64,000 nucleotides of DNA from a bacterium (GTDB lineage Bacteria; Patescibacteriota; Minisyncoccia; 1-14-0-10-42-19): assembly GCA_030690215.1 (NCBI GenBank), contig JAUYHD010000004.1:31090-95089 (forward strand), in the 5' to 3' direction. The position numbers and the translations under genes are program-made. Shown piece by piece: positions 14,881 to 52,158 of this stretch. The notes beneath the pieces were generated by a model, which had not been told where the DNA came from, searched no databases, and saw only the letters and a list, made by a program, of their open reading frames with translations. Position 1 is the first letter of the stretch. Each line of letters begins with the position of its first letter.

Positions 14881-14920
<40 letters not shown>

Positions 14921-15299: not shown

Positions 15300-15670
15300 T
15301 CGAGTGGAATTCCCAATTTTCAAGCACCAATTTCAAAACAAATCCCAATGACCAAAATCCAAAACAAGGGTTTTTGAAAATTGAAACATTAAAAATTGAT
15401 TGCCCGCCCAAAGGGCGAGGTCTCGCCTAAGGCGGAAAAATTAGAAATTAAAAATTGGAAATTCCGCGCCGAACAAAGTGAGAAGCAGCATTGTTTTCTT
15501 TTCCTCTAGGTACTGAGATGTTTCACTTCCCTAGGTGCGCTCCGCGCTCTGCACGGAAACCCAAATTTCCAAGCACCAACCCCCAAACAATGCAAAAATT
15601 CAAATGACCAAAACGGATTTGGAATTTGAAATTTAGAATTTGTTTGGAATTTGGATTTTGTAATTTAGGA
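15300..15670 (-). repeat. Two related AT-rich expansion inserts in the 23S 5' domain ('cc(a/c)aatttccaagcaccaa...caaatgaccaaaa' copies at about 15318 and about 15558, plus 'aattgaaa/aatttgga' low-complexity runs)
   Basis: Direct repeat and low-complexity sequence lying between conserved 23S blocks. Confidence 0.5.
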
Positions 15671-16106
15671 TTTCCGTGCAAAGCACGGTCTCCGTGGTTT
15701 ACACGGAGGGGTTTCCCCATTCGGACATCTCCGGATCAAAGGTTGCTAGTCACCTCCCCGAAGCTTATCGCAGACACGCCACGTCCTTCATCGCCACTTC
15801 AAGCCAAGGCATCCGCCATATACTCTTATTCCCGCTGAAATATACAATGATTATAAATGCTATAATCACCTGTTGTTTATATTCTATTGTAAATTTGCTC
15901 ACCTTTACTGCCGGCATCTGTTTAATAAAAAAATGATAAACAGGTGTCGGGAGTAAAAATATTGTGTACCCTCCTCCGCACTTCTCCGCTAAAGCTCCGA
16001 AGTGCTTCGGGCGGGTTATTTTTCGCAACTACGCTTCGCGTAGGCAAAAAATGAATAATCGCGCCGCAAGCAGTGCGATATCTCACGCTATGCTTGCAGC
16101 TTTGCG

Positions 16107-29200: not shown

Positions 29201-29961
29201 TCGGTAAGGGTTGCCTGGTGAAGCGAGTTCAATGATTTGGAAAGCCCGATTCGGGTTCCATCGCTATCAATCAAGACAACACCTGAAAATGCGGAGTCTG
29301 CACCCAATCCCTGTCGTTCAACAGTGACTGAATCAACGATTACATCGCTTGCTCCCGCGCTTAATGTAATAACCGTGAATGGAACTCCTTGTGCGTTCTT
29401 TACCGCCAAAGAATCTGCCGGCTGGGTGCCCGCGGCAACCAATAAGCTACCAGCTGATACCGGCGTAGTTGGTGTGGTTGGCGTAGTTGGTGTCCCAAAC
29501 AATGCATTTAATTTAGCTCGCGTTCCCGCTCCTACAAATCCTGTAGGCGCGCTAAGTCCCAATGGAGTCAACACTTCAGAAGCATATTTGTTCTGGAAGC
29601 AGTTGGCCGCATCACGCGTGATAGGACCAAAGTATCCTGTGTAAGATCCGAAAGTGAAGCATCCTTCCAAGTCCAGCGCTTGCTGGAGGGCTTTTACTTC
29701 ATCGCTGGTCATTCCCATTGAAAGGTTCGTATTGAACACATGGGAAAATCCCGATGAGCCTCCCGACAAACCTGAAAGCTGTGTTTGCAATGTTGCAATC
29801 TGCGCTAACAGTGCTTGGATTTGTGCTTGAAGGTCAGCAACTGTTTGCGCTTGAGCTGCTACCGGAATCAAATATCCGATACCCCCAAGCCACAAAGCAG
29901 TTGTTACACTGAGAACGGTGGAAGCAATTTTTGCTTTCATCGTCCCTTTAAAGCTACTCAT
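26278..29961 (-). CDS. Giant secreted cell-surface protein with a PG_binding_1 (peptidoglycan-binding) domain and a long Thr/Ser/Gly-rich beta-rich region
   Basis: A 1227-aa ORF. It has a signal peptide/TM at the N-terminus, a coiled QAQIQALLAQIATLQTQL segment, the PG-binding-like motif MTSDEVKALQQALDLEGCF...YFGPITRDA, and a TPTTPTTPTTP linker. Confidence 0.75.
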   Translation of the reverse strand: MSSFKGTMKAKIASTVLSVTTALWLGGIGYLIPVAAQAQTVADLQAQIQALLAQIATLQTQLSGLSGGSSGFSHVFNTNLSMGMTSDEVKALQQALDLEGCFTFGSYTGYFGPITRDAANCFQNKYASEVLTPLGLSAPTGFVGAGTRAKLNALFGTPTTPTTPTTPVSAGSLLVAAGTQPADSLAVKNAQGVPFTVITLSAGASDVIVDSVTVERQGLGADSAFSGVVLIDSDGTRIGLSKSLNSLHQATLTEDFTIKAGTTKTVTVGGDMAASLSANVGEAPILAVTAIALKGTATLEGSLPIKGAIHTANNSLTIGSVTNAIGPLDPGSSVNKKVGETAYTFTSVKFTAGSAEDLLLKNIRFNQSGSAASSDLANVKIVVDGTAYDAKVSDDGKYYSASFGAGVSIAKGFSTEVSVKGDIVDGSSRTIDFDIFRRTDVTFYGKTFGYNISPPNGTDASGTDDGAFHEDTNPWFDGYQVTIDTGTLTVENSSAVQSQNVAENVPDQAIGGFNVEIKGEEISVAQIIFGLGTTGTGDPADLTNISLVRDDGVVLAGPADGVVVSGSYGTVTFTETIIFPVGKKTYTLKGKYGSDFDNNDTVHASTTPSTQWTTVTGQTTSVSITPSPSSAISGNTMTLKAAAVTISVSSVPLAQNVVAGTSDFLFANYELDATNSGDDIRFASLPLEYGTPVGGTATNLTACKLYDGATIVSDGVDPSAVGSSTSFTFLGSGLIVPKGTVKTIGLKCNISTGAAANTGFRWGYSTASSPTPTGVTSGQSATVTENGSGDGTGVVGQTMTVQTGGTYTVTDDSTPGYSIVQSGTTGVTLAKLKFSASFEDIDIRRVNFELSAVATNSPIDLIGQKVSLYDGSTWLADATFGANGDFATSSVIASGAFRVPKDSSKTMTVKGDIGGITVSGPLVASGDFLQVQWDAGALGLSGGNYGVGVGSGSNISPTGSDTTITGVRIMKSYPSFAKIDLSTSERTMQTGSDRTIYKFKVTAVGNDVQLYKFTFQLSSSTGNLANASTSGYSVYAFTDSSFASPDTSFSTTGLLNAENCAYPTDAILLFGGMFKSSDKTAAVEATDNVSVIGLDNTDINVNFNKTTCGTATTTYKIPSGETRWFRFAADVYGVETSSGEESFEVRLMGDAAYPTATPHPDENINATDKIAMASATFIDTDTNDDLIWSPNSTTTSIALTDLDFTNGYLVPGLPTTNMSFETLTSSN

Positions 29962-32117: not shown

Positions 32118-33320
32118 CTACGCACTATTTCTTGTGTCTTTTATGCCTATGACACGAAGTGTTTCTTCTACGGTAGTAACCCCGCGCGAAACTTTTTTCA
32201 TCATTGCGTCCCATAAACTCTTTGACCCCTTCTGTCGGAGAATGGTTCCTAATTGAGAAATGTTTTTCCCCTCCATGATATACGATTTTATATCTTCATC
32301 AAAAGCAACTACCTCAAAAACGCCCTCTCTGCCCAGATATCCGCTGTTCTCGCATGCGTTGCACCCCCTTCCTTTCTTCAAGGAAATCCCGGAAAACGAA
32401 TCTCCAAAAATACGCTTCTCAAAGTCGTTCAATACATAGGGCTCTTTGCATTTCTCGCATATTTTTCTCACCAGCCTTCCTGATACAACACCTATAAGAA
32501 CGTGGGAGATGACAGAACGAGGTATCCCCATCTCCAGAAACCGAATTATAATCCCAGGAACATCAAATGTATGAAATGTAGAAAACACGAGAATGCCCGA
32601 AAGAGCAGCCTGAAAAGACAACTGCACCGTCTCTGTATCCCGCAGTTCTCCAAGCATTATAACATCAGGATCTTGGCGTAATACAGCTCGGAGCGCTTTT
32701 GGAAATGTCACCCCTATACTTTCTTTTACTTGAAGCTGTCTGATAGTGTCCATTTGAAACTCTATAGGGTCTTCAATAGTCACTATATTATTCCTAGGAG
32801 TATTTATTGCTTTGAGAATAGAATATAAAAGGGTTGTTTTCCCCGCCCCGGTCGGTCCCGTAATTAAACTCATGCCATACGGGAAAACAATCATTCTTTT
32901 TACATCTTCTATCTGGTCAAATTCAAAACCTAAACCTACCAAATCCATCATGGCGTCCTTTCTGTCCAAAAGACGCAGCACAACCGCCTCTCCAAATGTT
33001 GTGGGGAACGTTGAGACGCGGAGATTATAGATTTTCCCCCCCTCGCCATATATCTCAAAATGGCCGTCTTGCGGAAAACGTTTTTCCATTATTTCCATGC
33101 CCGCAAGAACTTTAATGCGCGAAACAATCTCGTCCTTCCCGTCTTTCTCAAACACCTCTGCCGGATGCAAAAAACCGTCTATGCGAAAACGGACGCCGAA
33201 AGAATCTCGCGCCGGCTCAAAATGAATATCGCTTGCGCGAAGCGTAATTGCTCGCCGTAATAATGAGTCAACAAGATCGGTTACGTTTTTATATTGGCTT
33301 CCTTTTGGTTCTTCGGCCAT
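32118..33320 (-). CDS. Type II/IV secretion system ATPase (GspE/PilB family)
   Basis: Walker A ITGPTGAGKTT. Also the Asp box, Walker B and His box (...DPDVIMLGELRD...FSTFHT...) and a tetracysteine motif CEKCK...CNACE. Confidence 0.85.
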   Translation of the reverse strand: MAEEPKGSQYKNVTDLVDSLLRRAITLRASDIHFEPARDSFGVRFRIDGFLHPAEVFEKDGKDEIVSRIKVLAGMEIMEKRFPQDGHFEIYGEGGKIYNLRVSTFPTTFGEAVVLRLLDRKDAMMDLVGLGFEFDQIEDVKRMIVFPYGMSLITGPTGAGKTTLLYSILKAINTPRNNIVTIEDPIEFQMDTIRQLQVKESIGVTFPKALRAVLRQDPDVIMLGELRDTETVQLSFQAALSGILVFSTFHTFDVPGIIIRFLEMGIPRSVISHVLIGVVSGRLVRKICEKCKEPYVLNDFEKRIFGDSFSGISLKKGRGCNACENSGYLGREGVFEVVAFDEDIKSYIMEGKNISQLGTILRQKGSKSLWDAMMKKVSRGVTTVEETLRVIGIKDTRNSA

Positions 33321-34156: not shown

Positions 34157-37100
34157 TTGCGTAGTGTTCTCCGCATATTACAATCTAATTTTATCAATTA
34201 CATGCGTACTATTACTAAAAATATGAGATATGTTATGTTTTTTGCAGGTTTTATGGGAATAGCTGTGTTTTTGGCGTTTTCGCCATCAACGAGCCATGCG
34301 ATCAGCTTTCCTTCATGCTCTCTTTCCCCCCAGCAAGATAGGATTATTGTTCAGTTCAACCCTATCACAAAACTCTGGGCAAATGAGCAATACAAAATGG
34401 GGGGGCCGTTTTCGGCATCAATTCCCGCGGGAGAATACAAAATAACAGCAATGTCCTTTGACGACCACTTGGAACGGTCACATCAAAACCAGCCGAATGA
34501 GCAGTGGTTTATGATTCTTAAGAACAACAACAGCACTGTTGCTCAAACGGGTTCTACGAATGATTTGCCGGACAACGCGGATGTGCGCGTAGACGTTGTA
34601 AATATCTCACTCGTTATACCGCAATCGGTTACATCAATCATCACGTTTCATACGATGTACCCCAACAGCAATCCAAACAGTATTTACCCAATATGCGCCG
34701 CATTTGATAGGATACACCAGCCGGAACCCCCTACCGTAGATATTAAAGCAAACGGAAGTGATGGACCGATTACTATCGGATTCAACTCAAGCGCAACAGT
34801 AAGCTGGACATCGTCTAATGCATCAAGCTGTACTGCGTCAGGCGCATGGTCAGGATCAAAAAGCCTTTCAGGTTCTCAATCAACCGGAAATCTTACCGGA
34901 TCAAAAACATACACCATAACATGTACGGGATCCGACGGCAGTGACTCTGATAGCGTAACAATAAACGTACAACCACCCGCATCTCCAACAGTAGACATTA
35001 AAGCAAACGGAAGTGATGGCCCTGTAACAATCGGATTTAATTCCAGCTCAAATCTTACCTGGACCTCTTCTGACGCATCAAGCTGTACCGCGTCAGGAGC
35101 ATGGTCAGGATCAAAAAGCCTTTCAGGTTCTCAATCAACCGGAAATCTTACCGGGTCAAAAACATACGTTATAACATGTACGGGACAGGGTGGAAGCGAT
35201 TCGGATAGCGTGACGGTGACTGTGCAGTCGCAAAATCTTCCGACAGTAGACATCACCGCAACCCCATCATCAATCATACAGGGGGATACGTCATCGTTGG
35301 GATGGACATCCTCAAACGCAGATTCATGTTTCGCAACAAACGGATGGAGCGGAACAAAATCGCTTTCAGGCAATCAAGCAGTTTCGCCGCAAAACACCGC
35401 AACCTACACAATCACCTGTTCTAATGGTGCAGGCCAGGCATCAGACAGCGTAACAATTACCGTAAGCGTACCTCAATCGCTTCCGACAGTTGCTATTTCC
35501 GCAAACCCAAATCAGGTAGCGCAGGGAAACCCAAGCGTCCTTACATGGACATCTGCAAATGCAGACACATGCACCGCATCAGGTGCATCCGACTGGAATG
35601 GTTCGCGCAATATATTCGGAAATCAGGTAGTCTCTCTTTTTAATACAACAACCTACACGATTACCTGCTCCAACAGCACAGGACAAGCATCAGACAGCGT
35701 AACTGTTTCGGTCCAATCAATCACCCCCTCTGCCGACATTAAAGCGAATGGGAGCGACACATCTATCACTATTTCGCCCAACAGTTCAGCGACTATCAGC
35801 TGGACATCAAGCAATGCCGCAAGCTGTTCTATTTCACCTACCGGCTGGTTTGGGACATCGGGATCGCAATCAACGAGTAATCTCACCAACTCAATTACAT
35901 ACACAATAAATTGTAGCGGAGTGACAGGAGGCACGGCATCAGACAGTGTAACTGTGAACATCCAAGACAACCTCCCAACGGTGGATATTTCCGCGAATCC
36001 GGGATTTATAACCCAAGGAAATTCAACGGTGCTCACCTGGACTTCTTCAAACGCAGATTCATGTTTTGCAACAAACGGATGGAGCGGAACAAAATCGCTT
36101 TCCGGGAACCAATCAACATTCCTCACGCAGACAACCACATATACAATCACTTGTTACAATAACGCGGGGCAAGCAACAGACAGCGTAACTGTTTCGGTAC
36201 AAGCAATAACGCCTACGGTAGATATTACCGCCGCCCCTATAACAATAAACCGCGGCGAAAGCACTGTGCTTGTATGGAGCTCCGCAAACGCGGACTCATG
36301 TTTTGCAACAAACGGATGGAGCGGTTCTAAATCGCGCTCAGGATCAGAAGTAACGGCACCGCAATTTGATACCACATACACAGTCACCTGTGCTAAAGGA
36401 GGACAAAGCGTTTCGGATTCAGTTACGGTTTTTGTAAACGCGAACCAACCACCCATTACAGGAACATTCAATGTTGCCTGTTCCGTAAGCAGCCCGACAA
36501 TTACCCTAGGCGACAGCGTTTCTTTTGTCGCAGGGTATGCCGGAGGTGTTGCCCCCGTTACATTTCAGTGGAGCGGAGATGTCACCGGATTTACGCAAAG
36601 CCGTGTCACAAACTTTAGCACAACAGGAACAAAATTTGCGACAGTAACGGTAACCGACGCGCAGGGACGAAACAATTCCGCAAACTGTTCTGTACAGGTA
36701 GTCCCCGCGACGGTGGTAAGTGCTGCGCCTCCGCAACCTCCGACAGTTATCACAGCGACAACGAACACGCAACCGACGTCTTGTTGCTGTTGCAATGGAG
36801 TGCCAACGCAAATCCAATATGACTCAAATGGAAATCCAATTACCGTTGCGTCAGATACTCAAGACCGGTCAATGCTCGCTTCATTATTCACTACGCAAAG
36901 CGGAAATCCATCAACGCTCTTATACATGCTCTTGTTCCTATTGATTGTTCTCGCGATTATCGCCATGGTTCGCTATCTCTTCGTAGATAAGCCGGTAAGA
37001 CGGTACGAATATGGATATCGTCAAGAACAATATCCATACGAACGAAAGGGGTATGGATACCAAAACGGGAACTCCAACGGATATGCAAACGGATATGCCA

Positions 37101-37219
37101 GCGACGACGAACGATTCGAACCAAAAAAGCGCCAGCCCCAGCCATACAACGAAAACGAACGGTTTGAGCCGAAACGAAACGGATACCCGCGTCCTACATA
37201 TACCGAACAGTCCCGCTAA
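34157..37219 (+). CDS. Giant cell-surface protein: signal peptide, about nine tandem Ig-like repeats of about 100 aa, and a C-terminal TM anchor with a Tyr/Gly/Asn-rich cytoplasmic tail
   Basis: A 1020-aa ORF. The unit PTVDIKANGSDGPITIGFNSSATVSWTSSNASSCTASGAWSGSKSLSGSQSTGNLTGSKTYTITCTG..SDSDSVT is repeated with variation (DNA repeats at about 34740-36470). There is a CCCC motif just before the TM helix LLYMLLFLLIVLAIIAMV. Confidence 0.8.
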   Translation: MRSVLRILQSNFINYMRTITKNMRYVMFFAGFMGIAVFLAFSPSTSHAISFPSCSLSPQQDRIIVQFNPITKLWANEQYKMGGPFSASIPAGEYKITAMSFDDHLERSHQNQPNEQWFMILKNNNSTVAQTGSTNDLPDNADVRVDVVNISLVIPQSVTSIITFHTMYPNSNPNSIYPICAAFDRIHQPEPPTVDIKANGSDGPITIGFNSSATVSWTSSNASSCTASGAWSGSKSLSGSQSTGNLTGSKTYTITCTGSDGSDSDSVTINVQPPASPTVDIKANGSDGPVTIGFNSSSNLTWTSSDASSCTASGAWSGSKSLSGSQSTGNLTGSKTYVITCTGQGGSDSDSVTVTVQSQNLPTVDITATPSSIIQGDTSSLGWTSSNADSCFATNGWSGTKSLSGNQAVSPQNTATYTITCSNGAGQASDSVTITVSVPQSLPTVAISANPNQVAQGNPSVLTWTSANADTCTASGASDWNGSRNIFGNQVVSLFNTTTYTITCSNSTGQASDSVTVSVQSITPSADIKANGSDTSITISPNSSATISWTSSNAASCSISPTGWFGTSGSQSTSNLTNSITYTINCSGVTGGTASDSVTVNIQDNLPTVDISANPGFITQGNSTVLTWTSSNADSCFATNGWSGTKSLSGNQSTFLTQTTTYTITCYNNAGQATDSVTVSVQAITPTVDITAAPITINRGESTVLVWSSANADSCFATNGWSGSKSRSGSEVTAPQFDTTYTVTCAKGGQSVSDSVTVFVNANQPPITGTFNVACSVSSPTITLGDSVSFVAGYAGGVAPVTFQWSGDVTGFTQSRVTNFSTTGTKFATVTVTDAQGRNNSANCSVQVVPATVVSAAPPQPPTVITATTNTQPTSCCCCNGVPTQIQYDSNGNPITVASDTQDRSMLASLFTTQSGNPSTLLYMLLFLLIVLAIIAMVRYLFVDKPVRRYEYGYRQEQYPYERKGYGYQNGNSNGYANGYASDDERFEPKKRQPQPYNENERFEPKRNGYPRPTYTEQSR

Positions 37220-42007: not shown

Positions 42008-42511
42008 CTATCGTTTGATAGCGAGCATCTCTACCGTAAAAATAAGCGTTGCATTGGGAGGAATTGCGCCCGGAATACCGCGCTCGCCGTATGCAAGTTC
42101 GGGCGGTATGGTAAGTTTGCGCACCTCTCCCACCTTCATGCCTAAAACTCCCGCATCCCAGCCCGGAATAACTTCGCCTGCCCCTAAAACAAAATTGAAT
42201 GGGGTGCCGCGGTCAACGCTTGAATCAAACTTCGTATCGTCTTGGAGCCATCCCGTATAATGAACCGTTACCACGTCCCCTTTTTGTGCGCCATTTCCGG
42301 AGCCCTCTTGGATAATAGCAATCTGCATCTCTACTTCTTTTGCTCCTTCGGAAGAAGCGGGCGTTGAATCATTTTTATTTTCTTCTGGCATGGCATTTTC
42401 TTGTGTGTCGGCTGAAGGCGCGGGCTGATTAAGAGAATTTTTTGCTATATACATGCCTCCGCCAAGCAACAAAACAACAATAATAATCGCATACGACCAC
42501 TTATTATTCAT
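42008..42511 (-). CDS. FKBP-type peptidyl-prolyl cis-trans isomerase, membrane-anchored
   Basis: [22 protein letters not shown]...[36 protein letters not shown]. Confidence 0.85.
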
Positions 42512-42847: not shown

Positions 42848-43924
42848 ATGAACAAAATTACTTTTGCAAAAGCGACGACATTTAGCGAAGAACTTCAAAA
42901 AAATGTAGAGGAATATTTCAAAACAACCGGAGAAAAAAAGAGGGATAACCCTCTTATGTTTTTCAAAGCAGCGCTCATGTTTGCTTGGTGTGGGGCAGCA
43001 TATTATCTGCTCATTTTTACTACCAACACCTGGGTAGAAGCAATCGGTTATACCCTATTTCTCTCATTTGCGGTATTAGGAATTGGGCTTAATGTCCAGC
43101 ATGACGGAAACCATGGGGCATTCTCAAAAAGGAAATGGGTCAACTACATCATGGGATATAGCCTTGATATTATAGGAGGCAGTTCGTTTTTTTGGCGCAA
43201 AAAACATAATATAGCCCACCACACATACACAAATATCCAGGGCGCAGATGATGACATAGACCTCGGGATATTTGCCCGCATGGCGCCCGAACAACCCTGG
43301 CGACGTTTTCATAGATTCCAGCATATTTATCTCTGGTTTCTCTATGGGCTTATGTTCTTCAGATGGCATTTTGACTTCGAGGCTTTCCGGAAAAGCCTCT
43401 TTCCCCCAAAAGACGGACCGCAACCCGGCACATGGGATAGAATTACGTTCTTAGGAGGGAAAATTATATTTTTTAATTTAGCATTCATCATTCCTATGCT
43501 CTATCACCCATGGTGGGGAGTGCTTGTATGCTACGCCTTTGGCATATTCAGCATCAGCGCTGTGACTGCAATTGTATTTTCTCTCGCTCATACTATGGAT
43601 GAAACAGAATTTCCCCTGCCGAATCCCCAAACACTGCATATACCAAGCGAATGGATGAAACATCAACTACAGACAACAGTAAACTTTTCACCAAACAATC
43701 CGCTTTTGACATTTTATTTGGGCGGGCTCAATTATCAGGTAGAACACCATCTTTTTACCAGAATCTCTCATATTCATTACCCAAAGCTCGCACCCATCGT
43801 ACAAGAAACATGCAAAAAATTTGGCATTCACTACCGCGTCAATACAACCCTATGGGGCGCGATACAATCGCATTATCAATTCCTCAAAAAAATGGGACAG
43901 CCCCACATGCAACCAATCGCATAA
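42848..43924 (+). CDS. Membrane fatty-acid desaturase with three His boxes (HDGNHG, HNIAHH, QVEHHLF)
   Basis: A 358-aa ORF. It has the His-box pattern of diiron membrane desaturases. Confidence 0.8.
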   Translation: MNKITFAKATTFSEELQKNVEEYFKTTGEKKRDNPLMFFKAALMFAWCGAAYYLLIFTTNTWVEAIGYTLFLSFAVLGIGLNVQHDGNHGAFSKRKWVNYIMGYSLDIIGGSSFFWRKKHNIAHHTYTNIQGADDDIDLGIFARMAPEQPWRRFHRFQHIYLWFLYGLMFFRWHFDFEAFRKSLFPPKDGPQPGTWDRITFLGGKIIFFNLAFIIPMLYHPWWGVLVCYAFGIFSISAVTAIVFSLAHTMDETEFPLPNPQTLHIPSEWMKHQLQTTVNFSPNNPLLTFYLGGLNYQVEHHLFTRISHIHYPKLAPIVQETCKKFGIHYRVNTTLWGAIQSHYQFLKKMGQPHMQPIA

Positions 43925-44113: not shown

Positions 44114-44296
44114 GTGGCTTACGATGACAGGAGCGGCCCCCCTACGGACCGCAAAATGTATCAGGGCGATTGGAAGTGTTCAAACTGCGGAGCTGAAATA
44201 AAAGAACTCCCGTTTGAGCCGGATCCTGCACGCATGGATAAACTCCAATGCAAGGAGTGCTACCGACAAACCCGTCCCCCAAAACGCCGATACTAA
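44114..44296 (+). CDS. Small zinc-ribbon protein (CSNCG...CKEC), 60 aa
   Basis: A CxxC-x19-CxxC arrangement. The start is uncertain (GTG, or the internal ATG). Confidence 0.4.
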   Translation: MAYDDRSGPPTDRKMYQGDWKCSNCGAEIKELPFEPDPARMDKLQCKECYRQTRPPKRRY

Positions 44297-44374: not shown

Positions 44375-44611
44375 TTACAAGATACTTGTCATGATCCTTC
44401 GTTTGAGTTGAGCGAGCGCATTACCATCTTTTTTTAACGAGTGCTCTCGATGTCTCGCATCTTCCTCTGAAAAATACGCTTCATAATATCGCAACTCAAA
44501 CGGAGCATGTGATTTTGTTGAACGCACCTGCCCCTTGTTGTGTTCTTCAAACCTTCGTCTCAAGTCGCTTGTTGAACCCACATACAGATTCTTATCCATT
44601 TTGCCCCGCAC
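44375..44611 (-). CDS. GIY-YIG nuclease (catalytic domain only). The likely start is the ATG at 44597-44599.
   Basis: NLYVGSTSDLRRRFEEHNKG. The 5' end abuts repeat family C, copy 2. Confidence 0.8.
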   Translation of the reverse strand: MRGKMDKNLYVGSTSDLRRRFEEHNKGQVRSTKSHAPFELRYYEAYFSEEDARHREHSLKKDGNALAQLKRRIMTSIL

Positions 44612-44889
44612 CAGAAAGCCCCGAGCGTAAGCTCAAGGGATGAACCCCGTTAGAAGTCTTGGGGGCAGAAAAATTTGTACTCAAATTTTTCTTTTACGCA
44701 CAAAGATGGATTTTCTCATAACACATAAACCAACCCCCCCCCCTCTCTCTCTTTTTTTTGTCCTTTGTGAGGATATGCCAGACTTCTAGCGGGGTGAATG
44801 GTATAAAACGGGCTTTCGGTGCGGGATTTCGCGCAACGAAAGCTCGAAGGGGTTGATACCCCGAGCGTAAGCTTCGGGGAGCGCTTCAC
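44599..44889. repeat. Repeat family C, copy 2, carrying a nested insertion of about 160 bp (about 44648-44808). The insertion contains a 'ccccgttagaagtc' family-B-like motif and a C/CT homopolymer tract.
   Basis: Aligned by eye to 31877..32012. Confidence 0.5.
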
Positions 44890-44955
44890 TTTTCAAGATA
44901 TAGACATAGAACATACAAACATCATAGCCGACTTGAGACGCATAAGAAAACAGGT

Positions 44956-45459
44956 GTGGGGGTTTGCTATACTAATTACAATACCATGAGAAAAATGATT
45001 ATACAAAAAACACCCTATTCTCTTACGATAAAACGAGGCAGAACGGGGTTGGGCTTATTCACAAACAACAGCATCAGAAAAGGCAGATTTGTAATTGAAT
45101 ACGGAGGCGACCTCCTGCCGACCAAAGAAGCAGACAGACGCGGCGGCAAATTTCTCTTCAAAATAAATAAAGATTGGGCAGTAGACGGAAAGTCGCGCAA
45201 AAATATTGCGCGCTATATGAATCATTCCTGCCGTCCAAACTGCGAAGACAAAATAAAAAAGAAAAGAAAAAGAATTTTTATATATTCCAAAAAAAACATC
45301 CGAGCCGGAGAAGAACTCTCATTTGACTACGGCAAAGAATATTTTGATGAATATATTAAACCGAAGGGATGCAAATGCATCACATGCCTAGAAAAAAAGA
45401 CGCGTAATACCCGTCACTACCATATCAAGGCCAACCGCTCCTATAAAAAATCCGCTTAA
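44956..45459 (+). CDS. SET-domain protein (putative protein-lysine methyltransferase) with a post-SET CxC motif
   Basis: NHSCRPNC, GEELSFDYG, CKCITC. Confidence 0.75.
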   Translation: MGVCYTNYNTMRKMIIQKTPYSLTIKRGRTGLGLFTNNSIRKGRFVIEYGGDLLPTKEADRRGGKFLFKINKDWAVDGKSRKNIARYMNHSCRPNCEDKIKKKRKRIFIYSKKNIRAGEELSFDYGKEYFDEYIKPKGCKCITCLEKKTRNTRHYHIKANRSYKKSA

Positions 45460-45999
45460 GCGCAAAAATATTCCCATTACTTTATCAAACGCGACCTTCA
45501 ACTTTTTAGAAAACATCTGCCGAAACATCAGCAACACAAAAATACAGATATAGTTAATACCGAGAATCATTGAAAGTATAGAGAGGCTTTCGGACGCGTT
45601 AAATTCGGACCCTATCAAAATACTTACTGAAATAGTCCCCGCCCCCACAAAAAAAGGGAGGGCTATTTCGGATGCAAGATCATCCAAGCTTTCTTTCATC
45701 CCCAAAAGAGCGAGACGCCCCTGCACAACGAACAAGAACGCTTGAGAAAAAATAATAATGCCTCCAAAAATCCGGAATGATTCAAAGTGGATTCTAAAAA
45801 CTTCTTCAAACAGAAATGTCCCCGAAAGCGAGAAAATGAAAAAAATAGCAAGAGAGATCAGAGACGCTTTCAACAGAACAACCAAAAAATCCTTTCGCGA
45901 AAGCGCAGACATGACCGGCTGAAGATACAAAAAAAGCGCAAATGGATTGAGGAGCGCAAGAAATGCAAGAATATAGGCGACGGCGGGAGAAGAGAACAT
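45388..45999 (-). CDS. MarC family (UPF0056) integral membrane protein
   Basis: A 203-aa ORF with six TM segments, LNPF near the N-terminus and FFVGAGTIS. It overlaps the convergent SET gene by 72 nt. Confidence 0.65.
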   Translation of the reverse strand: MFSSPAVAYILAFLALLNPFALFLYLQPVMSALSRKDFLVVLLKASLISLAIFFIFSLSGTFLFEEVFRIHFESFRIFGGIIIFSQAFLFVVQGRLALLGMKESLDDLASEIALPFFVGAGTISVSILIGSEFNASESLSILSMILGINYICIFVLLMFRQMFSKKLKVAFDKVMGIFLRLSGFFIGAVGLDMVVTGITRLFF

Positions 46000-46002
46000 G
46001 TC

Positions 46003-47307
46003 CTAAAAATCACGCAGATACCCCCAATTATGGAGCTTGTCGCTATCCTCAAACCATCTGTCCGCGATATCTTTGCGGTAATACATATTCGGCATCATGA
46101 TGTTTTTTATCCTCTTGTACGCCTGCGCTTTCGCCTGCTTCATTGTTTGCCCCGTCCCAACAACAATCAACACGACACCCGAAGTACCGGTGATAACCCA
46201 TTCGCCGTTTACTTCTTTTACGTCTTCAATGTGAATCCCGTCACGTTGCGGTTTTTTAAAAAAGATAACCGCATCCTTGGAGTTAATTTCAAATGTTTTG
46301 ACATCCCGATAAAACGGGAATGGCGGGACCACAAGACGAACGCCCACTTGAAACCCGCTTCGCGTACGGAGTTTTATCTGTTCGCCTGCCGCCAACTGAT
46401 ATAAAAATTCTCCAATGGGATTGAGCATGCCCTCCTGCTGAATGCTGATTGTAGGATAGCCGAAACGCGACGTAAACTCCAAAGGATAAATGCCATTTGC
46501 ATTCACAATGCAATTTAAATCAATGTAGCCGACATACCCCTCCTCTGCGAGCTTCCCTTCCATTTTTTTAAGCGTATTATTGAACACATTATTCGGCGCG
46601 CTCCAAAACATACTGGTTCCCATCTCGCCTGTAGACGGGCCTATATCCCCGGGAAACAATTTTTTGTGCTCAAAATTGACGTTAATCGGATATACAAATT
46701 CTTTCCCGTTGAAAAATGCCCCCACCCCAACCTCAACCCCCACCACGCGCTTTTGGAGCAAAAACAATTTTATTTTTTTTGAGAGTGATTTTTTGTATGC
46801 CAGAAGAAGCTGAATGACATCTTTGCCGTCTTCTTCCTCTCCCACAAACAAAAGCTGTTTTATATTCTGCGCGTCCAAGCTTGATTTAATGACATACCGG
46901 CCGGGATTATTTTTTACATATTCAATAGATTCATCAAACGAAGAAAAATTTTGATATGGCAAAATAAGCACCCCTGCCTTTTTGAGTTCCTCTTGGCCAA
47001 ATGAACGGTCATCCTCCAGCATATCGGTATAGGCAGTCCCCCCAACCACAAGCTTGCCGTCTTTACGAAGCCTCTGCGCCTTTTTCCCATGGCCCAGCAC
47101 ATCGTCAAACACAATAACGTCGGCCCATTCAACATCTTTTTGCCAATCATCTGTTTTTGCGATAAAGCCGTCGCCAATATCTTTTTCGGTGGAAGATTCA
47201 ATGAAATAGCGGACATCGTGCCCTTCACGCGCCACCTGCCAAGCGATATCCGTAATAAGACCCTCTATGGACACAAAAAGAAATTTTTTCTTTTCTATCA
47301 TATTCAT
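46003..47307 (-). CDS. PurD-like ATP-grasp ligase (phosphoribosylamine--glycine ligase homologue)
   Basis: 434 aa. NFEHKKLFPGDIGPSTGEMG corresponds to the PurD DHKR...GDxGPNTGGMG block, and the length and N-domain pattern are PurD-like. The canonical GGREHA motif is not obvious. Confidence 0.6.
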   Translation of the reverse strand: MNMIEKKKFLFVSIEGLITDIAWQVAREGHDVRYFIESSTEKDIGDGFIAKTDDWQKDVEWADVIVFDDVLGHGKKAQRLRKDGKLVVGGTAYTDMLEDDRSFGQEELKKAGVLILPYQNFSSFDESIEYVKNNPGRYVIKSSLDAQNIKQLLFVGEEEDGKDVIQLLLAYKKSLSKKIKLFLLQKRVVGVEVGVGAFFNGKEFVYPINVNFEHKKLFPGDIGPSTGEMGTSMFWSAPNNVFNNTLKKMEGKLAEEGYVGYIDLNCIVNANGIYPLEFTSRFGYPTISIQQEGMLNPIGEFLYQLAAGEQIKLRTRSGFQVGVRLVVPPFPFYRDVKTFEINSKDAVIFFKKPQRDGIHIEDVKEVNGEWVITGTSGVVLIVVGTGQTMKQAKAQAYKRIKNIMMPNMYYRKDIADRWFEDSDKLHNWGYLRDF

Positions 47308-47408
47308 ATGTTTATCCTACACCTCTATTCAAAAAAATAAAAAGTGTGAATAAGTTTTTTATATAAAAAAACGTCCGGCGATACGCCAGACGTACTATGT
47401 ATGTTGTA

Positions 47409-48323
47409 TTATGTGCTTGCTGTTTTTGGCAACTGCACTATGTTTACATAATCCAAGCCCCTGATAATCCAGTAGATTGGATCTTTTTCGTGCCATCGAA
47501 CGCCTCCGAAATTCGCATTACCCGGCCTCTGATGATGATTGTTATGATAACTTTCTCCCAACATGAGAAAATCAAATGGCAAAAAATTCCGCGACGTATC
47601 GGGGGTGTCAAAATTTCGATAGCCGACAAGATGCGCGAACCAATTAACAATCGCTCCATGAATCGGCCCCATGGCGCATGTAAAAGCCCAAAACGGCAAA
47701 ATATACAGCCATTCAAGAGGAGGAGTTATGTACGGAAACCACCCTAAAGAAATAAGAGGGTATGGGGATACGATTACATAGAAAATAAAATACGCAATGC
47801 CCCATGCGAGCCGCATATAATATGACTCGGCGAATGCGTCAAAAGCATCCCAGGTGGGCAAATTTTTCTTAAATCTCTCTTCTACGGGGAATGATCCTTT
47901 CCCGATACCGCTGTATGCTTCCCGCGTTCTCGACATCATAGAAATAATATCATTATCATATCGGGGCGAATGAACGTCCTTTTCTGTATCCGCATACGCG
48001 TGATGTATGCGATGCAATATTCCATATGTTTTTGGGCTTAAATAGGAAGAACCCATAGTAAGCCACGAGAATATGAAAAAAAATTTCTCCCATCTTGGAG
48101 TCATCTTAAACTGGCTATGAGCGGCGTATCTGTGATTAAAAAAGGATTGCGAGAACAGCGAAAGAAACCAAAAACAGAAAAAGTAAAAAACAATCCACCA
48201 CATGGTTCCATCTCCTTTTTGTAAATGAGCTCTATGCGAAAAATCAAATCGTTGTTTGATACTAATGCTAACAATCGCCCGCCGCACTGTCAACGAATCG
48301 CGCGCTTCTTCTTTACTCCACAA
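47409..48323 (-). CDS. Acyl-CoA (delta-9-type) membrane desaturase with His boxes HRYAAH, HRIHHAY, HNNHHQ
   Basis: A 304-aa ORF. The three-box pattern is typical of the stearoyl-CoA desaturase family. Confidence 0.75.
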   Translation of the reverse strand: MWSKEEARDSLTVRRAIVSISIKQRFDFSHRAHLQKGDGTMWWIVFYFFCFWFLSLFSQSFFNHRYAAHSQFKMTPRWEKFFFIFSWLTMGSSYLSPKTYGILHRIHHAYADTEKDVHSPRYDNDIISMMSRTREAYSGIGKGSFPVEERFKKNLPTWDAFDAFAESYYMRLAWGIAYFIFYVIVSPYPLISLGWFPYITPPLEWLYILPFWAFTCAMGPIHGAIVNWFAHLVGYRNFDTPDTSRNFLPFDFLMLGESYHNNHHQRPGNANFGGVRWHEKDPIYWIIRGLDYVNIVQLPKTAST

Positions 48324-48365
48324 AAAAACCGCTGATGCGCAAACGCAATCAGCGGTAGTTTGGTT

Positions 48366-49019
48366 TTAATGAATTATCGTGCCGAGAGGAATCTTCCGCA
48401 CCGAATCAGCTACCGTGCCCAGAATTTCGTTTTCTATATCCAGAAGCGCTTCGTCGTGTGCAACCCAAAAGCCCTCAAACGCCAACACAACAACATCCAT
48501 AGGAACAGAAATCGTAAGAATATTTTTTTCTATATTCTCATAGCATTGACGAATCGTCTGTTCCCATTTTTCGTTGGCAAACTCCATGAACAAACCCTTA
48601 TTCATTGAAAAAAGAATGAATAAAAATACGGCTATCGGCATTGAATATGAAACATCGCCCCGCTCGGCATCGTCTACAATCGTTTGGTTCATAACATCAA
48701 GGTATTCAATAAAGCCGGCTGTATGTTTTCTTCCGAGTTTCTCAAGCTCTTCGGTCCATTGCCCCTGATCAAGCAATCCGCCCCATACGGTAACCCCAAA
48801 AATATGCGGGATTGCTTCAACATCAGAAATGCGCTGGTCATCAATTTCTCCGCAAAAAACGGCTCCTCCGTCCTGTACTACATACGAGGGCACATCTGCC
48901 ATATATTGAAAACCTATCTCTTTTAGCTGTTCTGCTACTGCCCGAAAATATGTCGCATCGGAACGTATAATCAAAAGCCTTTTTGCGTTTTTGTTTTCTT
49001 CAGTTGCCATACGGAACAC
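48366..49019 (-). CDS. Hypothetical protein (217 aa), co-operonic with the desaturase and the SET gene
   Basis: ORF only. It overlaps the upstream SET gene by 20 nt. Confidence 0.45.
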   Translation of the reverse strand: MFRMATEENKNAKRLLIIRSDATYFRAVAEQLKEIGFQYMADVPSYVVQDGGAVFCGEIDDQRISDVEAIPHIFGVTVWGGLLDQGQWTEELEKLGRKHTAGFIEYLDVMNQTIVDDAERGDVSYSMPIAVFLFILFSMNKGLFMEFANEKWEQTIRQCYENIEKNILTISVPMDVVVLAFEGFWVAHDEALLDIENEILGTVADSVRKIPLGTIIH

Positions 49020-49407
49020 TCTCCTCCCCTAATGTTTTATAATCGACTGTCAATTCCTCGCCCGCATTGATATCACGCTGTGCGAAGTAATTGTATTGCT
49101 CATCATGATATATGTTCGGGGTGTCCGAATGGTTCAAATACCATCCTATGCACATCTTGTGAAAATCATGAGGCACCCAAAAGCCATCTTCATCCCTCAC
49201 CCCATATTTTTCAATAAGAGCTTTTTCTTCCTCATATTCTATATCGGAAAATTTTATAAAATCAGCATCTTCATTATCAAATAATCCCAGAAAAGAACCG
49301 GCGGGGATATCAAGTGCTGCGAAAACTCCAACACCCTGGATGAAAGATTGTCCTAGCACAAAATAAATAGTGCGCTCTCCTTTCTTTCTAGTAGCAAAAC
49401 TTGCCAT
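49000..49407 (-). CDS. SET-domain protein no. 2 (136 aa). The start is reassigned to the ATG at 49405-49407, which follows a gggaggagag RBS.
   Basis: GVGVFAALDIPAGSF..., NHSDTPN, AGEELTVDY. The track ORF extends to 49620, but the internal ATG has a strong SD. Using it removes a 78-nt divergent overlap. Confidence 0.7.
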   Translation of the reverse strand: MASFATRKKGERTIYFVLGQSFIQGVGVFAALDIPAGSFLGLFDNEDADFIKFSDIEYEEEKALIEKYGVRDEDGFWVPHDFHKMCIGWYLNHSDTPNIYHDEQYNYFAQRDINAGEELTVDYKTLGEESVPYGN

Positions 49408-49542
49408 TTTTACTCTCCTCCCTCTCTTTATTGTTAATTCTTTAGAGAAAATATCATTTTTTGTGTGGTTTGTCAATTGTATTAGTGGGCAAACCATGGT
49501 AAAAATGAGAGAATATTCTTTAAAAATATACGGAGGCAATAA

Positions 49543-50898
49543 ATGCTTAAAGATGAACGGCTGGATTCTTTGGCAAAACACGGCGCGAATGTCGCGCAAT
49601 TTGCGAGCTTTGACCCCCAAGGCAATATACGATTTGCCCGGGTGCGAGAACTTCCAAAAATAAAAACGGAAGATCTGAAAAAAGTAATATCTTTTGTGCT
49701 GGAACGCGGATGCGGTTCCGCAAACATACGTACATTCCTTCCCGAAAAACCCGATGGCAATCCATTTGAGTACGGGCTTACCAACAGCGAAGAAATTGCC
49801 GCAAAAATACGCGCCTATGCGTCACAGGGGTACTACACCATTCTTAACGAAACGATAGATATACATGACGGCGGGCTTTCAGGGGTGCTGTTCGGCAAAA
49901 TCATGGAAGGAGCGCCAAAAGATACCCCTCGCTGTGTGGAAAAGCCCGGATGCATGCTTCTCCCCCGCTCCATTGGATTCCAACTTATCAACGCAATATA
50001 CGGATTTCATTTCCATACCCCGTACGGCGAACATTGCAGAATTGAATTTTCCGTACATCCCGCACCCACAGGCCATCTCCGAGACAACCAAATTATTTGG
50101 CAAGTGGACGAATATGAGGATAGGGCGACCCCGCAAACAACCCCCCAAATCTTATGGCCGAATAAATACAGTGAATTTATCGGCGATAAAACATTTGGTC
50201 TCCTGATTGCATATCTCTTGGGATTTCCTGTGCCATTTACACGCGTATTTGCACGGGGAGTTCCCATGTTTAATTTCGGGGCAGAAATAGGCAAAAAGGA
50301 ACCGGTATGGGTCCGCACAGCGCCGCGCATACAAACACCCGGACGATTCAAAACAAAACGCGGGTGGCTCGATCCGTTTGAGATTATGCAAAAAGACGAC
50401 CCCGACAACAAAGACATAGCCGCAATACTTATCCAAGACGGGCTTTCTGCGGAATATTCCGGATCTGCAATAACCGACTACGCGGGCAATATAATAGTTG
50501 AGGGATGCAAGGGATATGGCGATAATTTTATGCTTGGCACAATCGCTCCGGACAAGCTTCCGCAAGAAGTTCTGGGGGGCATCACATTCATCTACGGCCG
50601 GCTCAAAGAAATTCTAAATGACATTAGATTTGAATGGGTATACGACGGAAGAAGAATCTGGGTTGTCCAGCTTCATACCGGAAAATCAGAAACCTCGGAA
50701 AATGTCGTATATCCGGGTGTACCAAAGCAATGGATTGATTTTGATCCGAAAGACGGATTGGAAGTTCTCCGCGAAATGGCGAAAGAAGTGGAAGGAAAAA
50801 ATATAGGCATCGTCGTACGGGGCCATGTGGGCATCACTTCACATGTTGGCGATATTCTCCGGAGAGCGAAGATTCCTTCATATATAGACAAACGATAA
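49543..50898 (+). CDS. Hypothetical 451-aa protein, possibly a PEP-utilising-enzyme-like phosphotransferase (PPDK_N-like N-terminus plus a swivel-domain-like C-terminus). It lacks a PEP/pyruvate TIM-barrel domain.
   Basis: An RBS (acggagg) precedes the ATG. The N-terminal LAKHGANVAQF resembles the PPDK_N GGKGANL motif. The C-terminal GIVVRGHVGITSHVGDILRRAKIPS resembles the PEP-utilisers mobile-domain TSH signature. Weak, by-eye similarity. Confidence 0.4.
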   Translation: MLKDERLDSLAKHGANVAQFASFDPQGNIRFARVRELPKIKTEDLKKVISFVLERGCGSANIRTFLPEKPDGNPFEYGLTNSEEIAAKIRAYASQGYYTILNETIDIHDGGLSGVLFGKIMEGAPKDTPRCVEKPGCMLLPRSIGFQLINAIYGFHFHTPYGEHCRIEFSVHPAPTGHLRDNQIIWQVDEYEDRATPQTTPQILWPNKYSEFIGDKTFGLLIAYLLGFPVPFTRVFARGVPMFNFGAEIGKKEPVWVRTAPRIQTPGRFKTKRGWLDPFEIMQKDDPDNKDIAAILIQDGLSAEYSGSAITDYAGNIIVEGCKGYGDNFMLGTIAPDKLPQEVLGGITFIYGRLKEILNDIRFEWVYDGRRIWVVQLHTGKSETSENVVYPGVPKQWIDFDPKDGLEVLREMAKEVEGKNIGIVVRGHVGITSHVGDILRRAKIPSYIDKR

Positions 50899-50959
50899 AA
50901 AAACGAAACAAAAAAAATAAACGGCACACACTGTGCCGTTTTTCTTTTTAGACATACAT

Positions 50960-51610
50960 TCATTTTTGGAACTTTGGGAAAAATCTTCCTACGCGCTTCA
51001 TATAGTCGCTGTATTCGCTCCCAAATCGTAATACAAGGTTTGCTTCTTCTTTTTTCGTACGAATAACGAGCAACAAAAACACAGCCATCCCCGAAAGAAA
51101 AACAAACCAATTCCCTAAAGCAAGAGAATTCGCGATAAAAAGTGAGCAAAGCACTACATAAAATGGATGACGAACCCAGCGATACGGACCACTTGAGATA
51201 AATGTATGTTCGTTCCGTATTACGACCGTATCGGTTAGATTTTTACCGAGATGCCGGAATGTCCATATCCACAAAACTCCCGCACATACTCCTAATGCCA
51301 CGCCAGTCCAACGAAGCCACAATGGCAACGCGACAGCAGACCATTGCATGAACTCAGGGCTAATCAAAAAAACAATAACTCCGCCCATGCTAAGAAGCCC
51401 GCCCAAGCGAATACCTATAAGTATAAACAGTCCCTCTTGCATGCGATCTAGCTTTTCTTTTGTTTTTGAACGAACTCGATAATACCCCGCCCACGGCACT
51501 ACTATCAAAAAACCGACAATCATTACTGCCCGGATTATAGTATCTTGATCCATTCCCCTATTATCCCCAAGATAAGAAAAAATGGAAGCCAAAAAGAAAA
51601 ATCCCGGCAT
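50960..51610 (-). CDS. Isoprenylcysteine carboxyl methyltransferase (ICMT/PEMT) family membrane methyltransferase
   Basis: FISSGPYRWVRHPFYVV and a C-terminal ...EE..L...FG..Y..Y pattern. Confidence 0.7.
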   Translation of the reverse strand: MPGFFFLASIFSYLGDNRGMDQDTIIRAVMIVGFLIVVPWAGYYRVRSKTKEKLDRMQEGLFILIGIRLGGLLSMGGVIVFLISPEFMQWSAVALPLWLRWTGVALGVCAGVLWIWTFRHLGKNLTDTVVIRNEHTFISSGPYRWVRHPFYVVLCSLFIANSLALGNWFVFLSGMAVFLLLVIRTKKEEANLVLRFGSEYSDYMKRVGRFFPKFQK

Positions 51611-51637
51611 GCCGGGATTTTTCTCAAACTGATTTTT

Positions 51638-51961
51638 TTAGTATCGGTTTCTGCCACCTCCAAAACCTCCGCCGTGGCCGCCGCGATTAAAGCCGCCTCC
51701 TTGCGGGCGCTCTTCTTGCGGGCGAGCTTCGTTAACGACTATTTTTCGTCCATCAAGCTCTTTGCCATTGAACATTTCAATCGCTTTTTGAGCTTCCTCT
51801 TCCGAAGACATTTCCACAAAACCGAAACCCTTTGAACGACCGGACATTTTGTCCATGATCACGGTCGCTGTTTCAACGGTTCCTGCCTTTGAAAATTCTT
51901 CTTTCAAAGTATCGTCAACGGTACTGTAGGACAAACTTCCTACATACAATTTTTTTGCCAT
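51638..51961 (-). CDS. RRM-type RNA-binding protein with a Gly-rich tail
   Basis: MAKKLYVGSLSYS (RNP2), KGFGFVEM (RNP1), GGGFNRGGHGGGFGGG. The start is reassigned to the internal ATG at 51959-51961. Confidence 0.8.
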   Translation of the reverse strand: MAKKLYVGSLSYSTVDDTLKEEFSKAGTVETATVIMDKMSGRSKGFGFVEMSSEEEAQKAIEMFNGKELDGRKIVVNEARPQEERPQGGGFNRGGHGGGFGGGRNRY

Positions 51962-52158
51962 TGATAGTGTATTTATGCTTTTAATTTTTGTAAGCCGACC
52001 TCCATTTGTATCTTTCAGCTTACATAAAATATAAGGAAAGGAAAACAAAACGTAGTACTTACTTATCCAACCATATTAGACTATTGCGTCTAAAAAGTCA
52101 AGCTCCGTCCGGTAAGGAGCCTAGGAAGCTTATATTTGGCCGATTCTAATCAAAAATT

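Follow-up and report, generated by a model that had tools for sequence, protein, structure and literature searches.

Phosphoribosylamine-glycine ligase, the glycinamide ribonucleotide (GAR) synthetase PurD (EC 6.3.4.13; TIGR00877), is the closest described relative of the ATP-grasp ligase considered here. In the PurD of A. aeolicus the ATP site contains Lys143, Glu192 and Lys214, and glycine is bound by Asp212, Arg287 and Glu292 (PMC8880213). Haloarchaeal genomes carry 'extra' PurD-like proteins as well, rrnAC0307 and Hlac_1553, which are without the GARS_N domain, the Mg2+ residues and the Asp of the R[LF]GDPE motif, and which their authors judged not to be GAR synthetases (PMC3261824). The present analysis concerns a PurD-like ATP-grasp gene and the genes around it, at positions 44956 to 50898 of a 64,000-nucleotide stretch of contig JAUYHD010000004.1 (assembly GCA_030690215.1, positions 31,090 to 95,089 of the forward strand; this whole stretch is called the window). 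The genome is of the candidate phyla radiation (CPR, Patescibacteria) type. An earlier note on this DNA had proposed that seven genes of the region, coding for two SET-domain proteins, a hypothetical protein of 217 residues (hyp217), a desaturase, the ATP-grasp ligase, MarC and a phosphotransferase-like protein of 451 residues (hyp451), make up a single new pathway for the modification of lipids, small molecules or proteins. The reading preferred here, to which a probability of about 0.6 is given, is that no such single pathway is present and that the genes belong to at least five transcription units, independent of one another, which make a mosaic in a genome of Parcubacteria related to Niyogibacteria.

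Transcription units and conservation of the neighbourhood

All the open reading frames (ORFs) named in the earlier note are present, and together with two terminators they are arranged as follows.

44956..45459, plus strand: SET1, a SET methyltransferase with a Cys-rich post-SET-like tail (PF00856, 1.8e-24, 86.6 bits)
45388..45999, minus strand: MarC, a MarC/NAAT-family membrane protein with six transmembrane segments (PF01914, 9e-14, 51.8 bits vs a threshold of 23.9, model 6-202/203)
46003..47307, minus strand: PurD-derived ATP-grasp ligase (Pfam GARS_A 2.5e-14 and GARS_C 1.5e-10)
47371..47393, minus strand: predicted intrinsic terminator, 10-bp stem with 7 GC pairs and T7, 3' of the desaturase stop and 5' of the ATP-grasp start
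47409..48203 (ORF to 48323), minus strand: Delta9-type acyl-CoA/acyl-lipid membrane desaturase (PF00487, 1.8e-18, 67.7 bits vs 29.7)
48322..48355, minus strand: second predicted intrinsic terminator, an interrupted stem of about 11 bp with T7, directly 3' of the hyp217 stop
48366..49019, minus strand: hyp217, a lineage-restricted orphan (no Pfam match at E<=10)
49000..49407, minus strand: SET2, a minimal SET methyltransferase of 135 aa (PF00856, 9e-13, 49 bits)
49543..50898, plus strand: hyp451, a putative two-domain dikinase-like phosphotransferase (AlphaFold2 model: PPDK/RPH-type ATP-grasp; C-terminal region with an invariant T-S-H)

The domain searches bear out the identities proposed earlier for both SET proteins (threshold 22.4 bits), for MarC over nearly the whole model, for the desaturase, whose translation holds the boxes HRYAAH, HRIHH and HNNHH, and for the PurD-like ligase; the convergent overlap of SET1 and MarC is likewise 72 nt (45388-45459). 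Translation likely starts at ATG 44986 in SET1, at ATG 49010 in hyp217 (214 aa) and at ATG 48203 in the desaturase, for which the Logan assembly gene call is 264 aa.

The tight spacing and shared direction of the genes favour the proposal of one pathway. On the minus strand SET2 and hyp217 overlap by 11-20 nt and the ATP-grasp and MarC genes are 3 nt apart; larger gaps part hyp217 from the desaturase ATG 48203 (162 nt) and the desaturase from the ATP-grasp gene (101 nt). It is, however, in these two gaps that the terminators lie, and both are conserved. The 47371-47393 hairpin also precedes the ATP-grasp gene in contig L086 of a sister genome, despite a different desaturase upstream, and sister contig L087 has a comparable hairpin with T7 after its hyp217 orthologue. 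The second terminator was read by eye from the sequence, the automatic scan having missed it, apparently owing to the bulge in its stem; terminator-like sites in the region number 25 vs 9.6 +/- 3.3 expected. The Delta9-type desaturase is preceded by a promoter-like TTGACA-17-TAGCAT (48293-48265), and its ATG by an AAAGGAG ribosome-binding site; another promoter-like site (49476-49448) lies upstream of SET2. Because the two conserved terminators, the promoter-like site and the ribosome-binding site fall in the two larger gaps, the five minus-strand genes most likely make up three predicted units, namely SET2-hyp217, the desaturase alone, and ATP-grasp-MarC, MarC being probably co-transcribed with the ligase gene whose stop it follows so closely.

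The gene set was then compared with 80 genome loci carrying the ATP-grasp gene, taken with 10 kb on each side. A tblastn search with fifteen window proteins returned no desaturase, MarC, hyp217, hyp451, SET1, ICMT-like or GIY-YIG protein from these loci, so that MarC is never beside the ATP-grasp gene there, and all-vs-all ORF clustering of the same loci revealed no ATP-grasp neighbour common to different phyla. Pfam censuses of the neighbours (two genes on each side outside Acidobacteriota, one on each side within Acidobacteriota) were heterogeneous. Thymidylate/cytidylate kinase, HIT, PP2C, MraW and cyclopropane fatty acid (CFA) synthase were considered as partners and rejected, each appearing in 3-4 census proteins only; such minor recurring neighbours are ascribed to within-clade synteny, as was checked for CFA synthase in loci L005/L006.

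The nearest genome (Niyogibacteria, L001, 84% ATP-grasp identity) keeps only the RRM, ATP-grasp, zinc-ribbon and FKBP genes, and because only these are kept they are regarded as the backbone of the region, into which the window has further genes inserted. The window genes outside the cluster that enter the comparison, with one further terminator, are listed below.

42008-42511: FKBP gene (Pfam scan of the window ORFs)
42848..43924, plus strand: second desaturase, front-end type, with HDGNH/HNIAHH/QVEHH (PF00487, 124.9 bits)
44114..44296, plus strand: zf60, a treble-clef zinc ribbon of 60 aa whose C-terminal tail is basic (PF23477 zf_Tbcl_2, 2e-5, just under cut-off)
44375..44611, minus strand: small GIY-YIG nuclease gene, between zf60 and SET1 (PF01541, 1.6e-13)
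50919..50941, strand-neutral: terminator hairpin, predicted to act in both directions, in the interval from hyp451 to the ICMT-like gene
50960..51610, minus strand: ICMT/PEMT-like membrane methyltransferase (PF04140 and PF04191; NF040696 109.8 bits, under cut-off)
51638-52048: RRM protein gene (Pfam scan)

The sister genome, known from contigs L086 and L087 (the latter from SRR22388126), is much closer (92% ATP-grasp and 80% hyp451 identity) and is arranged differently. In L086 the gene directly upstream of the ATP-grasp gene is a 363-aa orthologue (47%) of the front-end desaturase at 42848-43924. In L087 a hyp217 copy, 43% identical, directly faces the hyp451 orthologue with no SET2 between them, and the RRM gene comes directly after hyp451, the ICMT-like gene being missing from that place.

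The gene set is thus not conserved in any relative examined, an outcome that the earlier note had itself named as refuting its proposal, and hyp217 is without relatives outside the sister lineage. Since the window genes are mostly on the minus strand with short spacers, their proximity is weak evidence for shared function; proximity-based inference carries little in a genome so densely packed and strand-biased. Lipid-modifying genes do recur beside the ATP-grasp gene in a few lineages. Nevertheless, with two conserved terminators inside the cluster and no conserved gene order, the seven-gene pathway as proposed does not stand, and it is considered very unlikely. In the mosaic, the RRM, PurD-like ATP-grasp, zinc-ribbon and FKBP genes would form the backbone, around which lineage-variable accessory genes (the two desaturases, the two SETs, MarC, the ICMT-like methyltransferase, the GIY-YIG nuclease and the orphan hyp217) would have gathered.

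It may also be asked whether regulation and not chemistry joins part of these genes, so that the desaturases, RRM, FKBP and zinc ribbon would be a cold, oxygen or membrane-fluidity stress cluster. In cyanobacteria, cold regulons contain Rbp proteins together with desaturases, and here FKBP, a zinc ribbon, two desaturases and an RRM protein whose tail is Gly-rich lie inside 10 kb; RRM, FKBP, zinc ribbon and ATP-grasp moreover travel together in L001 and L048. Against this, no shared regulatory motif was found in the cluster, L001 is without desaturases, and the synteny of RRM, FKBP and zinc ribbon may be plain vertical inheritance. This explanation is regarded as improbable. The contig of L048 is labelled Candidatus Woesearchaeota, and its RRM and FKBP are 54% and 39% identical to the bacterial ones of the window, which suggests mis-binning or inter-domain transfer of the block.

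The PurD-like ATP-grasp family

The A and C domains of the ligase are homologous to those of PurD (PDB 2yw2, 2xcl, 2yrw and 1gso; residues ~78-420, E 1e-23 to 1e-28), the PDB alignments beginning at about residue 78. Lys141, Lys215 and Glu192 of the ATP site, the D/E-H-K and GP-x-TG-x-MG loops and the Arg of RFG are kept, and the ATP-site residues are equivalent to Lys143, Glu192 and Lys214 as mapped on the A. aeolicus enzyme (PMC8880213). In 25 aligned homologues Lys141, Lys215, Glu192 and Glu277 are invariant.

The remaining landmarks of PurD are altered. Neither a GARS_N match (Pfam, E<=0.01) nor a GGREHA-type N-terminal motif was found in the protein, and it scores 115.8 bits against the PurD equivalog TIGR00877, far under the cut-off of 288. 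The PROSITE signature PS00184, R-[LF]-G-D-P-E, reads R281-F-G-Y-P-T286, so RFGDPE has become RFGYPT, and the Mg2+ motif E-x-N has become E-F-T, with Asn replaced by Thr279. The glycine-binding triad Asp212/Arg287/Glu292 corresponds to Glu213/Arg281/Thr286, in which Arg alone is unchanged. These changes are not peculiar to the window: all 25 homologues of a diverse alignment share the RFGYP core and Thr279, and the full motif E-F-T-x-R-F-G-Y-P-T is found in 79/80 genome loci if slight variation is allowed at three positions, one of them ending the motif with His in place of Thr.

The protein might still be supposed to be a genuine but divergent GAR synthetase, since PurD accounts for all its best matches in the PDB and among protein families, and the public annotation of the family is phosphoribosylamine-glycine ligase. 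That is hardly credible given the score, the missing GARS_N match and the Thr residues that stand, as a family-wide feature, for both the glycine-binding Glu292 and the Asn of E-x-N. Moreover, no pur gene was seen beside the ATP-grasp gene among the annotated window genes or in the neighbourhoods examined, the survey being one of neighbourhoods only, and the family is also present in large Acidobacteriota genomes presumed to hold purD already. Judged by its motifs, the ligase is not a GAR synthetase, and the substitutions define its family; the earlier view that this is no ordinary PurD has therefore held up under the domain searches. The haloarchaeal extra PurD-like proteins depart from PurD in the same manner, a likeness by description only (PMC3261824).

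The family counts more than 7,900 homologues and is solitary in most genomes. Mean identity between archaeal bins (DPANN, 'Methanosarcinales') and bacteria (Acidobacteriota, Gemmatimonadota, Bdellovibrionales and CPR) is about 70%, and within groups it is 74-84%. The cross-domain value is well above the level expected for PurD itself. Such extreme conservation marks the family as worth characterising, and its 'PurD' label says nothing on purine synthesis in the genomes that carry it. No mention of a PurD-like ATP-grasp ligase in CPR bacteria was found in the literature. A phage origin of the gene was considered and rejected: tblastn against 50,697 phage records gave weak matches only (<=31% identity), nearly all of them to unannotated records.

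As regards function, the ligase would have kept the ATP site and acyl-phosphate chemistry of PurD with a remodelled acceptor/glycine site, and it probably couples a small carboxylate to an amine, though not to phosphoribosylamine. MarC, for which all NCBIfam NAAT transporter equivalogs are under cut-off, may import a small neutral amino acid for it.

SET proteins, the zinc ribbon and the ligase in other genomes

Prokaryotic minimal SET lysine methyltransferases (PF00856) have a core of NHS..PN and GEEL..DY, and the two window proteins, single-domain and 135-167 aa long, share it: SET1 has NHSCRPN and GEELSFDY, SET2 has NHSDTPN and GEELTVDY. They differ in that SET1 bears a partial post-SET Cys cluster and SET2 does not. 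Both would be expected to carry out S-adenosylmethionine-dependent lysine methylation. The statement of the earlier note that SET domains are rare in bacteria is an exaggeration, as a metagenome scan seeded with SET2-like proteins returned at least 217 relatives.

In three CPR genomes (L010, L019, L037) a SET gene lies directly downstream of the ATP-grasp gene. The metagenome scan, which returned 80 loci, served as the reciprocal test, and there the commonest neighbour of SET2-like genes is the ATP-grasp gene (7 of 80 metagenome loci); the zinc-ribbon gene ties for the next place (4 of 80). In L154 the order is zf > SET > ATP-grasp, the overlap being 4 nt, and in L148 it is SET > ATP-grasp; the two genes converge in L143 and diverge in L118, and an LPG_synthase_C gene sits between them in L150. 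Altogether five arrangements of the pair were seen, among them both co-directional orders, the convergent and the divergent one. The ligases so linked retain the E-F-T-x-R-F-G-Y-P core.

In similarity ranking and a neighbour-joining tree all ten ATP-grasp-linked SETs (L010, L019, L037, L111, L118, L141, L143, L148, L150 and L154) fall into one clade of 15, whose proteins are ~140 aa long with an N-terminal ..NTYCRLKPSKI.GVGVFA.. and often have a 60-aa zinc-ribbon gene upstream. In this clade the ATP-grasp gene is adjacent in 10/13 assessable loci, against 0/~65 loci for the other SET clades. Homologues of zf60 were found at most 5 kb from the ATP-grasp gene in L003, L048, L076, L141, L150 and L154, and in L003 the two are directly adjacent and convergent (zf > < ATP-grasp). 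The recurrent association of this SET clade with the ATP-grasp and zinc-ribbon genes is genuine in other CPR-like genomes. The three together are a concrete candidate for a prokaryotic protein-modification system. In the searchable literature no paper connecting SET domains either to CPR/DPANN or to ATP-grasp neighbourhoods was found, bar one unrelated match.

An ATP-grasp ligase linked in several genomes to a gene for a zinc ribbon of ~60 aa recalls, by analogy, LysX/ArgX with LysW and RimK with S6. The ligase here is of PurD type, however, and not of RimK type; there are no lysine or arginine biosynthesis genes alongside the SET, ATP-grasp and zinc-ribbon genes, and zf60 ends in a basic tail (..RPPKRRY). 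The acceptor tail of LysW-type proteins is of the acidic EGWGE type.

In two loci that are unrelated to each other the SET/ATP-grasp pair has genes of polyamine type on its flanks. Recognised mainly by eye, those in L143 (124-3223) resemble pyruvoyl arginine decarboxylase, carboxynorspermidine dehydrogenase and carboxynorspermidine decarboxylase, and those in L148 (2810-6209) resemble arginine decarboxylase, deoxyhypusine synthase and agmatinase. A Pfam census of neighbours showed the Orn_DAP_Arg_deC domain twice. From the genes beside the pair in L143 and L148, polyamines might tentatively be named as candidate amines for the ligase.

Two further proposals give the window itself a part in this association. 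In the first of these, zf60, SET1 and/or SET2, the ATP-grasp ligase and perhaps MarC would cooperate in a modification, the window SETs being non-orthologous replacements of the linked ones and the desaturases, hyp217 and hyp451 bystanders. This is possible, if rather doubtful. It has on its side that the ATP-grasp gene is the commonest neighbour of SET2-like genes in the 80 metagenome loci, the high linkage of one SET clade in five arrangements, the recurrence of the zinc ribbon with the pair, and the gene order of the window, zf60 > (GIY-YIG) > SET1 > < MarC < ATP-grasp, which is that of L003 with insertions. On the other hand, both window SETs lie outside the linked clade: in the tree SET2 groups with L089/L090 and SET1 with L121_27, and SET2 and the L154 SET share 35% identity (51 bits). 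Two genes and two terminators part SET2 from the ATP-grasp gene, and SET1 is convergent to it. In 9/13 CPR-type ATP-grasp loci, three additional ones included, no SET adjoins; nor was one found in the neighbour censuses of the Acidobacteriota, Gemmatimonadota and Bdellovibrionales loci.

The second proposal goes further and takes the ATP-grasp family, in this view mis-annotated in thousands of genomes, as the catalytic core of an undescribed modification system, acting with the SET clade and the zinc ribbon in CPR-type genomes, of which zf60, SET1, MarC and ATP-grasp of the window would be a rearranged version. One possibility would be that the ligase attaches an amino acid or polyamine to a SET-methylated protein. 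For this wider claim, which is judged unlikely, the window offers at best a rearranged or displaced version of the association.

Several observations nevertheless weigh against the mosaic of independent units. The terminators are predicted from sequence alone and read-through is possible. Given the genome size class, two SET genes are unlikely to lie within 2 kb of the ATP-grasp gene by pure chance. SET1 stands between zf60 and the ATP-grasp gene; L141 and L154 have zf-SET-ATP-grasp operons in which the linked SET takes this place, and in L150 the linked SET also follows the zinc-ribbon gene. The tree that sets the window SETs apart is a quick neighbour-joining tree without support values. The sister contigs are short (2.6-2.9 kb), so that SET1 and MarC may yet be present in the sister genome. 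Finally, a lipid-modifying gene adjoins the ATP-grasp gene in four lineages: the window, L086, L005/L006 (CFA synthase) and L150 (LPG_synthase_C). The CFA synthase of L005/L006 holds the place upstream of the ATP-grasp gene that the front-end desaturase holds in the sister genome.

Desaturases, hyp451, hyp217 and the wider region

The two desaturases follow the described classes of PF00487 in the spacing of their His boxes, HX4H/HX2HH/HX2HH in the Delta9 type and HX3H/HX3HH/QX2HH in the front-end type. They differ from known members in being far under the NCBIfam equivalog cut-offs and in belonging to a CPR genome. By their sequences they would be di-iron enzymes, dependent on O2 and an electron donor, that introduce double bonds into acyl chains. 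CPR bacteria are not known to make their own fatty acids, and for this reason the acyl chains are plausibly scavenged; the presence of two O2-dependent membrane desaturases of different classes in one CPR genome hints at remodelling of scavenged lipids. The Delta9-type protein matches phrog_35201 with 196 bits (2e-57) vs 68 bits for Pfam FA_desaturase, the one match that the PHROGs search gave, and a tblastn search of 50,697 GenBank phage records with it gave no match. PADLOC returned nothing for any of eight proteins. A phage or defence origin was rejected, PADLOC being blank and the phage-record searches blank or weak.

Pyruvate phosphate dikinase (PPDK), phosphoenolpyruvate (PEP) synthase and rifampin phosphotransferase are the nearest described relatives of hyp451. 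The earlier note had described this protein as PPDK_N-like with a swivel-His signature and no TIM barrel, and had advised modelling it together with hyp217. For hyp451 the predicted structure supports that description: the AlphaFold2 model built with 46 homologues is confident (pLDDT 93.2, pTM 0.91), and the two best Foldseek matches in the PDB are pyruvate phosphate dikinases 1ggo and 1kbl over ~473 columns, followed by rifampin phosphotransferase and Ddl-type ATP-grasps. The predicted structure holds a PPDK_N-type ATP-grasp domain. T432-S433-H434 is invariant in the 46 homologues and the chain ends 17 residues on; the superfamily phospho-His signature G-G-x-T-S-H is matched in part only (V-G-I-T-S-H-V-G). 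A third, substrate-binding domain (TIM barrel, rifampin-binding domain or equivalent) is absent from the 451-aa chain, as against ~850-870 aa in the PPDK superfamily. The fold is seen by structure only and not by sequence profiles: no Pfam match was obtained even at E<=10, PPDK_N and PEP-utilizers included, and a PDB profile search gave nothing meaningful for the PEP-utilizers domain. On the model, hyp451 might transfer a pyrophosphoryl or phosphoryl group from ATP to His434 and then pass it on to an acceptor, which either another protein or the ATP-grasp lobe would bind.

It can be said that hyp451 defines a widespread two-domain dikinase-like family without a Pfam entry. Its 904 homologues come from CPR bacteria, cyanobacteria, Acidobacteriota and further groups, and among the 120 of them that were listed not one carries a Pfam domain. 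The neighbours of its homologues (L083, ZCdlansC, L084, L088) have nothing in common with the window cluster and include thioredoxin with alanyl-tRNA synthetase, dCMP deaminase with guanylate kinase, an S1-domain protein and, in a cyanobacterium, toxin-antitoxin genes. In the CPR locus ZCdlansC the homologue directly adjoins the dCMP deaminase and guanylate kinase genes, and in L083 adenosine deaminase and dCMP deaminase genes are at most 7 kb away.

For hyp217 modelling was uninformative. Its AlphaFold2 model, from 2 sequences, has a pLDDT of 60, and Foldseek gave nothing at E<=1e-3, only generic ferredoxin/ACT-like matches at E>5e-3. A word-indexed search of 5.8 billion clusters found the identical database copy only, and a HMMER scan of 1.8 billion representatives added one full-length relative of 49% identity and one spurious repeat match. 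The idea that hyp217 is a conserved partner of hyp451 or of the ATP-grasp ligase was dropped, except for the sister genome: the hypothetical genes of similar size that adjoin homologues in L002, L083 and L084 bear no relation to it.

A 14-bp terminator-like hairpin (51594-51625), 3' of the RRM gene, encloses the ATG annotated for the ICMT-like gene, whose true start is probably a downstream Met (MDQDT...). The GC content is flat, 0.42-0.45, over 42-52 kb of the window; recent horizontal acquisition of the cluster was rejected as there is no compositional signal.

The assignment of the genome to CPR/Patescibacteria comes from a 23S rRNA with extra sequence and from best protein matches to metagenome-assembled genomes of Niyogibacteria/Parcubacteria. 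The 23S rRNA match is 3,712 nt long against a 2,925-nt model, which leaves ~790 nt extra (window 10298-15839, minus strand). A group I intron match (11914-12119) abuts the 3' end of the 23S rRNA match, and between the intron and the 5S rRNA an ORF of 159 aa (11139-11618) could code for a homing endonuclease. Two very large ORFs without a Pfam domain, 26278-29961 (minus strand, 1,227 aa) and 34157-37219 (plus strand, 1,020 aa), both adjoin a type II/IV secretion ATPase gene (32118-33320).

The GIY-YIG gene adjoins a 344-bp repeat-bearing spacer (44612-44955). The short intergenic repeat CCCCGTTAGAAGT is present in 6 copies at <=2 mismatches vs 0.9 expected, in this spacer and also at 6848, 41200, 41394 and 41448; its copies are partly in inverted pairs ~40-125 nt apart, and it is found in the sister genome too (L087:2803, 2918). 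The same 344-bp spacer holds, twice, a GNRA-loop hairpin, CCCCGAGC-GTAA-GCT...

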